A DNA stretch of 16,376 bases, taken from assembly GCA_027050205.1 (NCBI GenBank), contig JALUCS010000035.1, forward strand, positions 1-16,376. The letters are read 5' to 3'. Below are positions 3,001-9,000 of this stretch, piece by piece; within the stretch, counting starts at the first letter, position 1; every line of letters begins with the position of its first letter. This DNA comes from a candidate division WOR-3 bacterium (lineage in GTDB: Bacteria > Hydrothermota > Hydrothermia > LBFQ01). The position numbers were made by a program.

Positions 3001-6000
3001 TCCTCGTTGTATCCCCACGATAGGCTGTCTATCCCCCACCTGTCCCTTAGGATGTCCCGGATATCGCTCTGCGAAGGGTCAAAGTAGAAGACGAAGCTGT
3101 CGGCGTCAAGGCAGTTCCGGTAGCCCTCTATGTCCTTGGAGGTGTAGGCCACCTCCAAGTTCCTCACCACGTACTCCGGTTTCACCGGAGGGTAGTACTT
3201 ACCCTTTCCGTCGTACGTCTTCGGAAGGAAGACGTTCCTACACCCCAGAAGGACCAGGGGGAGGATCAGTCCGGTATAACGGATACGTACTTCCTCCCCT
3301 TCCTCTCGTGAAACTTCACGACCCCATCCACCGTCGCGTAGATGGTGAAGTCGGAACCCATAGCCACGCCCCAACCGGGGTGGATGCGGGTCCCCCTCTG
3401 CCTGACGATTATCTGGCCCTTCTGTACGAACTGGCCCCCGTACTTCTTAACGCCGAGGTACTTGGGGTTGCTGTCTCTTCCGTTCTTGGTGCTTCCACCT
3501 GCCTTCTTACTCGCCATAGACGGGTATTTTAAAGTTGATAGGTGCCTACCGTACGAGGAGGAGCCTGTACCCGCCGCCCGACTTCAGGAGGTACTTGCCT
3601 CTGGCCCTGTTGATGGGGCCAACCTTACGACCGGAGGGGTCGTAGGCCACACCGAAGGGGGTATAAGTTATGTCCCGCTCGCGGATAGGGGTCGGCAGGA
3701 GAAGCTCGTAGATGCCGGGAAGGGGACCGACCACATACACGTAGTTTCCGGCCAGGTCGGCACCTACCCCCGGAAATACGGAATAACCGTAGTCCCAATA
3801 GAAGCCCAACTCCCGTACGTCCGTCGGATCCGAGACGTCATACACATCCACCCACGCCTCATCGCCGTACCCAGCGGATAGAAACACCATACGGTTCCCC
3901 TTAACCTTTAGGAAGACGGGGTTCAAGAAGGTGGATACGGTATCCACCGGATAGGGGGCGGAGGGGTCGGTTATGTTGAAGATGATAATCCCGTCGGAGG
4001 TAAGGGCGTAGAGGTATCCCCGGCTAATGTCTATTATCCCCGCACCCTGGGGTATGGCTCCGATCTCGGAGGGAAAGCTGGGGTAGGCCACACTGTAAAG
4101 CTTGATGCTGTCCAACGTAGCCACGGCGAGGACGCTACCGTCGCGGGCCACATCCCTTACTACGGCGGGATAGGTTATCGTACGGACAACGCGGGGATAG
4201 TAGGGATTGGAGAAGCTCACAACAAGGAGCCTGTTGCTGTCGGTTACGTATGCTATAGTGTCGTACACGGCGAGTCTGGGGAAACCTCTAAGAGGTGCGA
4301 TTAGGTATCCGAGTCGGTAAGGGGAGGTCAGGTCGCTAACGTCGTATATCACCAGATACCCATCCAGCCCCACGCTCAAGAGCGTAGTGGAGACCAACTC
4401 CATATCCGAGACCTGGCCGAGGAGAGAATCGTGAGTGGAAGATAGAGTATGGCCGAGGAGATCCCTAACGGAAAGGCTCCGGTAATCCCCAACGAAGAGG
4501 GCGTCCCGGACGGTGTCCGTAAGGAGGGCCGTACCGTAAAGCGAGCCTATCCGCCTCATATTGAGCGAATCTATAGCGTAAAGGCTGACGAGAACCGTCA
4601 TCATAGGGTCCAATTGTAATCCGGTAATACTAACCTTATCGCCCGTACTCCTGCACATGCTACGCCTACACCAGTAGAATAGCAGTATGCGGAAGCTGTG
4701 GGCCCCTTGGAGGGCGAAGTTCATCCTACACGTTAAGAAGGACGAGTGCATATTCTGTACCAAACCGAAGGAAAGGGACGAGGAGGCCTACATCCTGTAC
4801 CGTGGGAAGTACAACTTCATCATCCTAAACATCTTCCCCTACAACTCCGGCCACCTGATGATAGCCCCCTACGCCCACAAGTCCTCCCCGGAGTACCTGA
4901 CAAAGGAGGAGTATACGGAAATGTTTGAGCTTCTGCAGTGGAGCATAGAGAACCTCCGCCTCGCCCTTAAACCCGACGGCTTCAACGTCGGTTTCAACAT
5001 CGGGAGGGTGGCCGGAGCGGGCTACGAGGGCCACATACACCTCCACATCGTACCCCGATGGAACGGAGACACCAACTTCATGCCCGTAATAGGGGATACT
5101 AAAGTCATATCTGTCGGCATAGAGGACACCTACAGGCTCCTCAAACCCCTGTTTGAAAGGGAGTCGTAGCTTATGACGGAGAACGGGGAGGAACTCCTAA
5201 GGAGCCTTAAAAAGTTTTTGGTGACCAAGGGGGATTTGAGCGAGACGGTGCGGCTCCTGAAGGGTGAGCTGGGGGGCTTCAAGGCCGAGATCTACAACCA
5301 CTTCCACGCCCTTGAGAACAGGCTGGACGCCCTAAGCGAAGGGGTCAGAGAAGTCTACAGGTTGAAGCAGGAGATATCCACCCTTAAGGGACGGATGGAG
5401 GAGTTGGAGAGGAGGTTGGATCGCGTTGAGGGGCGGGTTAGGAGGATAGGCTCCTCCATTCTAACTTTGACGGTCGTCAGCGTCGTTTCCGCCCTCCTAC
5501 TCCTCGCCATCCTGGTACTCCTCCTTACGAGGCCCTTATGAACACGCAGTCCCCGTCCTTTACGACGTAGTCCCTCCCCTCCAACCTGACCCAGTTCCTC
5601 TCCTTCGCCCCCTTCCAGCCTCCGGCGGCTACGAGTTTGTCCCACTCTATCACCTCTGCCCGTACGAAGCGTTTGGCGAGGTCGTTGTGTATGGTGGCGG
5701 CCGCCTCTATCACCGTCCCCCCCCTCCTCAAAGGCCACGCCTTCGTCTCCTTCTCCCCCGGCGTGAAGAAGGTTATGGTGTCCGTAGCCTTCAGTATGGC
5801 CTCGGAAACCCTCCGGTTCAACTCCTCCGGAGCCTCCCCCTTCAAATTTGCTACGACGTACGGCAACCCTTGGGCCTCCACCTCGGACAGGGCATCCGGG
5901 GGCGTCCGGTTTTCGGGGGTCTCGTTAAAGAGTATAACCCGCGGCTTGACGGAGAGGAGACCCAGCCCCCTTAGGACCTTCAGCTCCTCCTCCTTGAATC

Positions 6001-9000
6001 CGACGGCGTAGAGGGGGGTACCCTCCTCCACCGCCTCCAACGCCCGCTCTAAGGTTCGCAGTTCCCTCTCGCTCCCCCTCCCCACGGCCACCTCCTTTTT
6101 CAACCTCTCTATCCTCCGGGATAGGACGTCGCTCTCTATGCTCAAGAACCGCAGGGTCGTGTCGGTGAAGCTCAAGAAGTCCCCCACCAATCCCCCGCTG
6201 ACCTCAAGGAAGGCGTCGGCCTCCGCCAACTCCTGAAACACCCGCGTAGGTTTGTTCTCGTTGTAGGCCTTGCCGAGGGCATCGCTGTCTATCAGGGTAA
6301 TCTGCATAGGGGTGACCTTTCGGGGGCGGAAGACCTCCGCCAGCTTTCGGAGCCTCTCGTCTTCAACCCGGAGCGTCCCCACCCCCCTACCCCCGGTTAG
6401 CCTCTCCACCAACGTACTCTTTCCTATGAAGGAGGGACCTATTACGAAGACCTTCACGGCACCTATTCTAAATCCGCTACTTGGCCACCACCACTATGGG
6501 ACGTACCACCTTCTGTGAGCCGCTCTCAAGGGTATTGACGACCACCACCAGGGCGTAGATACCCGGAGGTACCCGCCTACCCGCTCTGTTGGTTCCGTCC
6601 CACTCGTATATGCCGGCACCCCCTCCCTCAACGAGGGTCTTGACCACCCTACCCATCCCGTCGTATATGCGGAGGGAGTAGGTGCCTTTGGGTCCCTTGA
6701 CCTCTATGCGGGCGGTCTCCTTGCCGGCTACGAACACGTTCTTGGATACGGAGACCTGAAGCTCGTCGGCGGTGTAGCCCGTGCCGGGCGCCGCCATGAT
6801 GTCCAGGGACTTGCGGGGCAGGAGCTGGTACCCGGAGGTGTAGGGCGGGGTGTTGTCGTACTGGCCAACTATCCCACGGACGCTGATGTACTTACCGACC
6901 TCTATATTGGAAAGGTCAATTCCCGTATTCGGATAGACGTACACGGTTACGGGGACGGTGCCGTTATAGACCGTGAAGGACTTACCTATGCCGGCGTAGG
7001 AGGGGGGAGAGGTCACGACCACCGTATCCAACTGGACGAGGTTCCCCTCAAGGTCCTCGTTCAGGGCGACCCCCCTCTCCAACTTCATAGGTCTGGGCAG
7101 TGTGTCCGTCCCCAGTACCTTAACCGAGGAGAAAAGTACCTCGGTCAAACCGTTGTACTCCGTAACCGTTCCGAGGGCTACCACTAACATTCCCTCTTTG
7201 AGTCCCAAGAACTGGGAGGAGTAGAGGTTCACCCCTCCCGTACCGTCGTATATGTAGGTGGAGGTGTTGCTCGTACTGAAGGCCGAGGCGTCCGCCAACA
7301 CCACGCCGCCGACCAGGACGGTCTGGCCAAGGAGGTTGGAGGAGTAGTCGTCGCCGTAGGCTTGGACCTCGGATATGGGGGTGGTGAAGTAGAGGCGGGG
7401 AGAGAAGACGGACCGGCGGTATATGTCGGCCGTGTCCAAGGCGGAGAACAGTAGGAGGACGAGGGAGTCCTCGCTGTGGGGGGCCAGCGTAAGGGTGAGG
7501 GTGTCGGAGGTGAAGGCGGGGTTCCAGAACTCGGCGCATACGGTATCGCCGAAGGTTAGTACGTTGGTAGGGGAGCGGCTTCCGAGCTTCGCCCTTCCCA
7601 TCTCGTCCTCTGATAAGCCGTTGGCACACACCCTGAACTTGGCCACAGGGCTGAAGGAGGATAGGGCGAACTTCCAGGTTGAGGCCTTACCCTTCAGGGA
7701 GAAGTAAGGACTCTGGCCGAGGAGCATAACGGAGTTGTAGAAGATGAGGTCGGAAGGCTCACGGGGGACTATCCTGTAGATGTTCCCGGCGCTCCCGCTA
7801 TCCTCGTCCACTACCCCCACGAGGTCAAAGATGGTGTCGGGGGGAGGGAAGCTCTCAACGTTCCCGTACCTATCAAGGTAGAGGTTCCCAGAATTGTTGT
7901 ACCGGTCTATTATCGGGACGTTCTGACCGACCGGTACGGTTATCAGGGTGGTGTCAAACCGGACGCTGTCCACCCTTATGAGGACGCCGGAGTACCTCTC
8001 CCTCGCCCTGTTCAGGCCGTCCACCACCACCGGCTCCGGGACACCCACGAACTCCCTGTAGAGGATGTTGGGGTAGGATATCTCCTCCAACCCCCTGTAG
8101 GGGGAGAAGGTACCTTCGGCAACTATCAACTCTCCGGGGTTGACGCCCAGACTACCGTAAAGTACGAGGCCCGAAACCGTATCCCTGAAGGTGTCCTGCA
8201 TATAGGCCTTGTTTCCGAATACGGCCGTAATCACGCCCCGCACCCTCACGTTCTCGTTCACAAGGACCGGCCTCTCCGCGAGGACGTTGTGGAAGAAACG
8301 CAGGGGTACGGTGGTGTCCTCCCTTATCACCACTACCCCGACGCCGAGGGTGAGGGTGTCGGTGGGACCGGCGAGGGTGATGGACAGGTTCTTCAGGCCC
8401 TCCGGGGCGGTTATCCGCAGATCCCTGAAGGTTATCCGGCCGTTCCCGCCGGGGGCAAAGGTGAAGGAGGAGAGGGTGATGGAGTTGGAAGAGGTGCTTA
8501 CGCTGGCGTAGTCAAAGACTCCGTCCGTCGTGTAGTTAGAGAAGGTGGCGCTGTCTCCCAGGTCTATCCGTACGTAGGAGACGGTGTCGGAGGAAGGGGA
8601 TAGGGAGAAGGTTAAGGTCAGGACCCATGGGGTGTTGCGGGGGATGACCTTGCCCTCGCTTAGGATGGAGACGTCAATGGCACCAAAGGCAAACAGGAGC
8701 ATATGCCTCTATTCTAAACCCGTTATATGCCTACGCTAAGGAGGAGGACGTCCCAAGTTAGGTGGGAGACCCAAACGGGGGTCAGATCGTGATGGTAGAG
8801 GTAGAGGAAGCCCCAGAAGAGACCGGCGAAGACGGAGGCTAGGGTTAGCGCCCAGTTGCCGGAGAGGACGTGGGCAAACACGTAGAGGGCCACCGCGAGG
8901 AGGTAGCCGGGGAGTTTCCCCCACTTCAGTACCGCCAACCTCTGCACCGTTCCCCTCCAGAAGAACTCTTCCGCCGTAGATACGGTGAGGACGACTGGGA

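Follow-up and report, generated by a model that had tools for sequence, protein, structure and literature searches.

A sole YchF copy without switch I, probably deficient in ATP hydrolysis, in a candidate division WOR-3 bacterium

The only YchF-family gene found in a candidate division WOR-3 genome encodes a protein of 310 residues that lacks the whole switch I/K-loop, and we consider it probable, judging from its motifs, that this protein is a hydrolysis-deficient and still nucleotide-binding YchF that acts on the 50S ribosomal subunit. YchF is a near-universal ribosome-binding ATPase, and YchF/OLA1 proteins belong to the Obg family of the TRAFAC class. The absence of Asn12, Thr36 and the His114 loop (E. 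coli numbering) supports the survey's finding that the known K+-dependent mechanism should be unable to run here. The window analysed covers positions 1 to 16,376 of contig JALUCS010000035.1 (GenBank assembly GCA_027050205.1), and the features discussed are listed in Table 1.

The gene had been described as the sole ychF of the genome. In this genome (G000, 93.5% complete) only one gene passes the PF06071 cut-off, with 95.1 bits against a cut-off of 27, and an HMM built from 130 intact YchFs and run over all six frames found neither a second copy nor a remnant, so that the description holds. The protein also misses the TIGR00092 cut-off as had been said (130.7 against 279.2 bits); this is weak as a test and no proof of degeneration, because the intact copies of families f6 and f7 miss the cut-off too, whereas among the switch-I-less copies from other phyla there are some that exceed it. 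The upstream position of the neighbouring 741-residue gene is kept within genus g1 only, and comparison of loci over about 1.5 kb on each side gave no partner gene common to the whole class. NCBI labels the close relatives P0009, P0010, P0015, P0027, P0045 and P0058 as 'DUF933 domain-containing protein', which is an automatic label and not a described family. We found no literature coupling YchF with DUF933, and a search by title and start of abstract, with supplements and most subscription papers outside its scope, found no paper on degenerate bacterial YchF.

Table 1 Features of the YchF-family gene and its neighbours. Positions count along the window; residue numbers are those of the 310-residue protein unless an E. 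coli position is named.
Feature	Position	Strand	Remarks
YchF-family gene, switch-I-less	5525..6457	-	310 aa, GTG start, no internal stops
G1/Walker A, residues 7-15	6413..6439	-	GPSFIGKST; G, GK and S/T kept
Switch I/K-loop deletion junction, residues 21-27	6377..6397	-	Cys35 and Thr36 (E. coli) absent
G3 region, residues 57-63	6269..6289	-	DSDALGK; Walker B Asp72 kept, Gly75 replaced by Ala (E. coli)
Shortened loop replacing the catalytic His114 loop, residues 88-97	6167..6196	-	No His
Helical (coiled-coil) domain, residues about 96-170	5948..6172	-	Basic tip
G4, residues 178-181	5915..5926	-	NETP; Asn kept, Glu lost
G5 region and further deletion	5819..5851	-	About 20 residues (two helices after G5) deleted
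TGS domain (PF06071), residues 227-310	5528..5779	-	Best-conserved part
Upstream neighbour	6477..8702	-	741 aa, OB-fold-like and FlgD-Ig domains
Convergent coiled-coil/membrane ORF	5173..5541	+	17-bp overlap with the 3' end of the YchF gene

In order to compare the G-domain motifs, we used an alignment of 218 rows from which 15 fragments, duplicates or masked sequences were left out (G005, G041, G048, G063, G236, G249b, G259, L109, L114, L145, L147, L151, L157, L165 and L179). The losses listed by the survey stand, and Asn12, the His114 loop and the residues after G5 are gone besides. Walker A is retained, as had been stated: all 11 full-length sequences of family f1 have GxxxxGK[ST], the columns being G 11/11, G 11/11, K 11/11 and S in nine and T in two of the 11. 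The pattern GxxNxGK is absent, with the K+-ligand Asn12 changed to Phe in 10/11 and to Tyr in 1/11. The switch I/K-loop is gone, with no NxPFxT or [YF]PF[CT]T and its Mg-binding Thr, but the deletion measures 13 residues and not 14 (K15-to-D48 spacing of 21 against 34 in E. coli YchF). Relatives do share it, with 13 residues missing in 11/11 full-length f1 sequences and 12 residues in genus g3 of family f2 (5/5) and in family f9 (2/2). The G3 motif reads DSDA in the translation, in agreement with the survey, in place of DxxG, and the switch II GEGLGN is unrecognisable; DxxG is kept in 31/36 degenerate class copies outside f1, and switch II is lost as well in G034/G037 and some f2 copies. Lys63, just after G3, stands where E. 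coli Lys78 falls when no gap is introduced. The His114 loop is 11 residues shorter than in E. coli YchF, and position 114 is gapped in all 47 full-length degenerate copies of the class. The G4 motif of YchF is (N/T)(M/L/V)xE (PMC11814078), and neither this nor NxxE is present in the protein. The deletion after G5 is specific to f1 within the class (gap at position 243 in 11/11 f1 sequences, E in 36/36 others). In family f8 (3/3) even the Walker A Lys is gone from the sole copy. A genome-wide loss of K+ dependence was rejected, since EngA (both domains), Era, ObgE and FeoB of G000 retain the Asn and the switch I Thr.

As reported, the protein has both a helical and a TGS domain, and the YchF/OLA1 architecture of a G domain, a coiled-coil insertion and a C-terminal TGS domain extends across all 310 residues. 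The AF2 model has a pLDDT of 93.3 and a pTM of 0.88; it matches 1jal_B with Z 29.8, at an rmsd of 3.1 A over 306 aligned residues, and known YchF/OLA1 structures generally with Z 27-30. The best-preserved parts are the TGS domain, with 33/84 invariant positions in f1 against 27/152 in the G domain, and K121, which corresponds to E. coli K149 and is K in 11/11 f1 sequences and K or R in 36/36 other degenerate class copies. Among the tip lysines that bind H62, K149 is thus invariant in f1 and K156 is K/R in 10/11, whereas K152 and K159 are lost, with the tip still basic. Prediction of a complex of the protein with bL19 and uL14 of G000 gave a score of 0.00, but the controls were not folded, and the score counts neither for nor against binding.

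We propose that a pseudo-ATPase YchF replaced canonical ychF in the ancestor that ten of the class's families share and was later eroded further. ATP hydrolysis would be very slow or absent, because the K+ site, the switch I Thr and the catalytic His are all missing. K+ activation requires the K-loop and the P-loop Asn (PMC6310460), His114 is critical and the G4 Asn is required for binding (PMC10144078), and a YchF P11/N12 variant is termed ATPase-deficient (PMC8138138). Mg-ATP or ADP may still be bound through the P-loop, the Asp and the G4 Asn, serving in structure or sensing rather than as fuel. The protein would bind the 50S subunit through its coiled-coil tip at uL14/bL19/H62, like E. coli YchF, act there as a splitting or anti-association factor, and leave by weak affinity or competition with no hydrolysis step; it would fill the role that a genome's one ychF is kept for. 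The loss of K152 and K159 in f1 speaks against tip binding exactly as in E. coli. The E. coli ATPase turns over at 0.36 per min alone and 3.1 with 70S (PMC3583859). Also against the proposal, its binding to the ribosome required a non-hydrolysable nucleotide, or H114A with ATP (PMC11814078), and the oxidative-stress phenotype requires an intact ATP site (PMC8779481). Deletion of E. coli ychF has little phenotype, the gene being dispensable in normal growth (PMC11814078), so that keeping a single copy per genome need not imply a shared job.

Against the loss of hydrolysis stand Walker A, Asp72 and the G4 Asn, which are near-invariant as expected of a working NTPase (kept in 143, 138 and 147 of 150 cluster representatives), and the Lys78 position, which is K/R in 9/11 f1 and in about 37/47 degenerate class copies (both by eye). 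Together with the DxxG of most copies outside f1, these would fit an active K+-independent NTPase, in which a Lys or Arg substitutes for K+ and His114 and is supplied by the protein (K63 following G3, or a basic residue in what is left of the shortened loop), by a partner or by the ribosome; Arg/Lys fingers in place of K+ are the theme of PMC6310460. We consider such an enzyme unlikely, given that the switch I Thr and His114 are gone, that f1 has lost Gly75 and G034/G037 and some f2 copies switch II too, that the Lys78 column is K/R in just 53/150 representatives, that f8 lacks the P-loop Lys, and that no class-wide neighbour gene offers itself as a candidate activator. It is quite improbable that the protein has changed and now works away from the ribosome, perhaps in binding nucleic acids or alarmones, with normal YchF function absent: the YchF-family gene is present in 62/64 class genomes (one each except G048, which has two fragments), the two types nearly exclude each other, and K149 and the TGS domain are kept best, although the dispensability of YchF in normally growing E. 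coli, the seven genomes holding both types, which fit distinct roles, and the loss in f1 of the residues after G5 and of two of the four tip lysines would agree with it. A decaying pseudogene, or an artefact of assembly or binning with the normal ychF missing from the bin, is hardly credible even in an incomplete genome of 135 contigs. The gene is under purifying selection (dN/dS about 0.1), and the near-closed genomes G056 and G057 (4 and 3 contigs) carry one degenerate copy and nothing else. The deletion junction is spanned gap-free by contigs of sequencing runs X1, X2 and X5, and relatives at 50-81% identity share the deletion, as do all 11 full-length f1 sequences; an assembly artefact is excluded because the X2 and X5 contigs, which come from two studies that are distinct from the possible source run, bridge the junction and because the relatives share it. 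The rpsF locus of G000 is also assembled, and the slot before rpsF holds neither ychF nor a remnant.

The survey's account implied a decay gradient of one orthologue within the class, and the gene order and trees speak against this. Within the class the copies are intact in families f6 and f7 and degenerate in ten families. Whereas rpsF lies directly downstream of 32/61 intact copies of the phylum (10/11 in f6/f7), it follows none of 74 degenerate ones. In a careful tree without the motif columns, whose bootstrap had not fully settled, f6/f7 fall inside the clade of intact copies (100/99) and the degenerate class copies form a clade of their own (99/97) that adjoins a Planctomycetaceae copy (96/87). 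The switch-I-less gene is therefore unlikely to be an orthologue of the f6/f7 copies that has decayed: its absence before rpsF and the place of f6/f7 in the intact clade point to displacement of the canonical gene by a divergent copy. The alternative is that only the history differs, the gene being a direct orthologue of the f6/f7 copies that underwent decay without displacement at the root of the ten families and left rpsF. A single event would then suffice, as f6 and f7 are together sister to all ten degenerate families in the RpoB tree (99); long branches may attract, motif intermediates exist in Thermoleophilia and Chloroflexota, and an AU test did not reject monophyly of the class (p 0.273), which leaves room for such decay. 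With the separate clades, the zero count at rpsF and the lack of a remnant there in G000, we regard decay in place as a lesser possibility than displacement.

The survey had cautioned that other phyla, too, may have divergent YchF, and it proved to be so on a large scale. In many Planctomycetota, Armatimonadota and Chloroflexota the sole YchF that turned up is a switch-I-less one, nearly always in place of the normal copy. Among 117 Planctomycetota genomes with a match, 79 had one of at least 392 bits, 38 had only copies of at most 342 bits and 1 had both, and among 79 Armatimonadota genomes 30 reached at least 364 bits, 48 had only lower scores and 1 was split; these counts overstate the exclusivity because kin are not independent. 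In the sequences that we read, switch I was absent in 38/38 low-scoring and kept in 3/3 high-scoring copies. Both types occur in G186, G211, G215, G220, G297, G567 and G597, and in family f35 sister genera of the RpoB tree hold either type. A fixed bit-score divide between the types was rejected: it held for 41/41 sequences from two phyla but broke down for Chloroflexota and Thermoleophilia, whose scores form a continuum. Without the motif columns, the degenerate copies formed one clade in FastTree (86/88, support 87) and in a quick tree (28/29, support 97), but not in the careful tree, which has the better likelihood and requires 3 changes. A single origin of all degenerate copies is not supported.

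The role of YchF/OLA1 and the purpose of its ATP hydrolysis are a long-standing question. Natural sole copies that are kept under purifying selection with no K+ site, switch I or catalytic His would make the role of YchF separable from hydrolysis, and stripped sole copies in several phyla suggest that its core job may not need to involve ATP hydrolysis. They can be read as a test, evolutionary and independent, of the 2025 proposal of splitting without hydrolysis. More tentatively, YchF might not be an ATPase across much of the bacterial tree and might do the same 50S job hydrolysis-free, with the switch-I-less form, the only YchF in most of the class, being exchanged for the canonical gene and the reverse; we hold this wider reading to be somewhat short of an even chance. 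If it is true, the conserved core of YchF/OLA1 would be hydrolysis-independent anti-association or splitting, ATP turnover would be a dispensable release timer, and the 310-residue protein would be a near-minimal YchF.

For comparison with known systems we used TIGR00092, COG0012 and the structures of E. coli (8KIE/8W51), H. influenzae (1JAL) and T. thermophilus (2DBY) YchF and human OLA1 (2OHF). The protein resembles these in its fold, Walker A, Walker B Asp, G4 Asn, basic tip, TGS domain and single copy per genome. Unlike them it lacks Asn12, switch I (Cys35, Thr36), GEGLGN, the His114 loop and a stretch of about 20 residues that follows G5, has DxxA for DxxG and NxxP for NxxE, is 310 and not 363 residues long, and is encoded away from rpsF. 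The E. coli variants YchF(H114A), which still binds 50S (PMC11814078), and YchF(P11/N12) are ATPase-deficient laboratory mutants, as the 310-residue protein would be deficient in nature; they are point mutants, however, whereas this is a natural sole copy that has lost all of these sites under purifying selection. Replacement of RsfS by the switch-I-less YchF was rejected, RsfS being present in 60/64 class genomes. RsfS and eIF6, whose folds are unrelated to that of YchF, bind the same region of the large subunit (PMC11814078) and are nucleotide-independent anti-association factors at uL14, and the mode proposed here would likewise be free of hydrolysis.

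The YchF-family frame translates without a stop into 310 aa. Its match to TIGR00092 scores 130.7 bits, below the cut-off of 279.2, and its match to PF06071 scores 95 bits; the best solved relatives in sequence and fold searches are all YchF/OLA1. The AlphaFold2 model (14-row alignment) has a pLDDT of 93.3 and a pTM of 0.88, and the predicted fold aligns to the YchF structure 1jal_B over all 310 residues (Z 29.8, rmsd 3.1 Å). This is the one PF06071 gene over the cut-off in the source genome, and a profile from 130 intact YchFs found no second copy in six frames, which bears out the survey's finding of a sole copy.

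In E. coli numbering (NC_000913.3), the protein keeps G9, G14, K15, S/T16, T17, D72, the G4 residue N207, K149 and the TGS core. The switch I deletion was read correctly in the survey but not its length, since the K15-D48 spacing is 21 residues vs 34 in E. coli and hence 13 residues, not 14, are missing, C35 and T36 among them. The reported change of G3 to DSDA stands and is where G75 is lost. The extent of loss had been put too low: N12 is replaced by Phe, the GEGLGN switch II is missing, the H114 loop is 11 residues shorter and without H114, E210 is lost, and about 20 residues are gone after G5. According to the available parts of the sources, the K-loop and the P-loop Asn are needed for K+ activation (PMC6310460), a P11/N12 variant is ATPase-deficient (PMC8138138), and functional roles are assigned to H114, K78, C35 and the G4 Asn (PMC10144078).

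The gene is real and under selection, and an artefact is highly improbable. The 13-residue deletion is common to all 11 full-length sequences of the source family, f1, and is present in the G041 fragment too. Contigs of sequencing runs X2 and X5 cross the deletion junction with 42-45 substitutions and 0 gaps; these runs belong to two studies, both distinct from that of X1, the possible source run. In three pairs of genus g1, dN/dS is 0.10-0.12, and about equal in the G domain alone. Constraint is strongest on TGS (33/84 positions invariant in the family), the P-loop core and K149. Four other genes of the source genome, which we take from their motifs to be EngA, Era, ObgE and FeoB, retain the Asn and the switch I Thr, so the loss is specific to YchF. 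The RpoB open frames of this genome (L327, on C73) and G036 (L329, on C6) have 1484 and 1490 aa, exceeding most relatives, and the family lies on a long RpoB branch, so it appears fast-evolving in core genes too.

The E. coli literature, together with the constraint on TGS, the P-loop core and K149, leads us to favour, with moderate confidence, a protein that would be hydrolysis-deficient, would probably still bind nucleotide, would act on the 50S subunit, and would be freed from it without a hydrolysis step. E. coli YchF contacts uL14, bL19 and H62 on the 50S, chiefly via its helical domain, in a structure that used the hydrolysis-dead H114A mutant; AMPPNP allowed splitting, and in the authors' view release requires ATPase activity and dissociation does not (PMC11814078). 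The available part of PMC3583859 describes the same conformation for the apo and ATP forms and weak binding, with a KD of about 3 uM. Against this reading, Walker A and B are near-invariant, K63 occupies the Lys78 position, K152 and K159 are lost, and the E. coli oxidative-stress phenotype requires an intact ATP site, as far as the available part of PMC8779481 states. An alternative activator that keeps the protein hydrolysing is unlikely in our judgement, and we consider a job away from the ribosome rather improbable.

Within the class, 62/64 genomes match YchF, each with one PF06071 gene except G048, which has two fragments. Among the 61 copies with a readable N-terminus, 11 (families f6 and f7) are intact, and 50, from ten families, are degenerate, lacking N12 and switch I. 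G056 and G057 (4 and 3 contigs) each have a single degenerate copy and no other. The loop is 4-5 residues short in most degenerate copies, and deletions of 12-13 residues occur in f1, in genus g3 of f2 and in f9; because g4, the sister genus of g3, retains a longer loop, we infer that the large deletion arose about three times. In f8 the Walker A Lys and D72 are lost too (3/3), and this sole copy is an end point within the class, probably free of nucleotide. The three loci (L031, L033 and L040, of G024, G026 and G025) have neither Walker A GK[ST] nor the Walker B Asp.

The survey had allowed for divergent YchF in other phyla, and copies without switch I indeed occur in Planctomycetota, Armatimonadota, Chloroflexota and Thermoleophilia. 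With a profile from 14 degenerate class proteins and targets clustered at 50% identity, 148 of the 150 top-ranked cluster representatives (a few of the 148 being fragments or fusions) have no canonical switch I motif; K15 is retained in 143 of the 150, D72 in 138 and N207 in 147. The degenerate copy was the only YchF found in 10/10 genomes with Planctomycetaceae, Gaiellales/Thermoleophilia/Actinomycetes, Dehalococcoidia and Armatimonadota loci. Counting by phylum, in samples of related genomes and not independent draws, YchF matches 117/121 Planctomycetota (79 at 392 bits or more, 38 only at 342 or less, 1 both), 79/81 Armatimonadota (30 at 364 bits or more, 48 lower only, 1 split across contigs) and 71/71 Chloroflexota (9 at 403 bits or more). 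In the first two phyla 41 sequences, picked across the lower scores, were read and the remaining copies classed by score alone: switch I is missing in 38/38 at 342 bits or less and present in 3/3 at 364 or more. For Chloroflexota, it is missing in 18/18 read below 403 bits and retained in 2/2 above. Thermoleophilia form a continuum (8/20 read with [YF]PFxT, 3/20 with YAYT[ST], 9/20 without the motif).

Both types occur together in G186, G211, G215, G220, G297, G567 and G597, and either type is found among sister genera of family f35. Genus g96 of f35 (L080-L092) has an intact copy that branches outside the phylum's own intact clade and does not stand before rpsF, with the degenerate type in the other genera; a reverse displacement by transfer is possible there. 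Five Armatimonadota genomes (G413, G415, G427, G459, G476) have two low-scoring copies, in tandem in G427, and no high-scoring one was found in them. Loci L189, L191 and L260 (G099, G100, G398) show another form of shortened switch I, with DIPG and the His114 region kept, and branch within intact copies; in G099 and G100 this copy accompanies an intact ychF that precedes rpsF.

With an rpsF profile built from f6/f7, which may overlook distant rpsF genes, rpsF lies downstream of 32/61 intact phylum copies having at least 500 nt downstream (10/11 in f6/f7) and of 0/74 degenerate ones; in the source genome the gene before rpsF is unrelated to YchF. Our careful tree (51 rows, 284 columns, motif columns removed, bootstrap not fully settled) places the f6/f7 copies within the intact phylum copies (100/99), the degenerate copies of the class in a clade of themselves alone (99/97) and a Planctomycetaceae copy beside that clade (96/87), and in the RpoB tree f6 and f7 together are sister to the remaining ten families (99). 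The simplest history would be a single displacement in the ancestor of the ten families, with further erosion afterwards. Against this, class monophyly survives the AU test (log-likelihood lower by 15.6, p 0.273); we regard decay in place, a question of history only, as doubtful. A single clade of degenerate copies appears in FastTree (86/88) and a quick tree (28/29; 97) and is absent from the careful tree; since intermediates exist as well, several origins are likely, and the G099, G100 and G398 copies look like a separate one.

The window holds no other restriction genes beside the HsdR-like one, and the HIT-family gene is apparently coupled to the coiled-coil ORF. The motifs of the small GTPase at L010 are like those of MglA.

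Coordinates of the YchF gene, other genes of the window, and two loci elsewhere
Feature	Position	Strand	Basis
YchF-family gene	5525-6457	-	PF06071
HsdR N-terminal nuclease-like domain protein (type I restriction), 339 aa	736-1755	-	PF04313
OB-fold/FlgD-Ig protein, probably secreted or lipoprotein	6477-8702	-	
Three further probably secreted or lipoprotein genes (one LVIVD-repeat, two without Pfam match)	3546-4763, 9672-10442, 2763-3374	-	
HIT-family protein	4687-5169	+	ATP adenylyltransferase is the top NCBIfam match, below cut-off
Coiled-coil ORF	5173-5541		
Small GTPase (L010)	G000 (source genome):C15:4009-4356		motifs
Tandem low-scoring YchF pair (L296)	G427:C74:36191-38801		

No description of a degenerate bacterial YchF was found in the literature searched, which includes few subscription papers. 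As a general phenomenon, COG0012 displacement is already known (PMC3151239, available part), and the available parts of PMC12641178 and PMC11237923 add nothing on this point. Judged by its sequence, the protein is a homologue of known YchF that differs from it in five motifs of the canonical ATPase.
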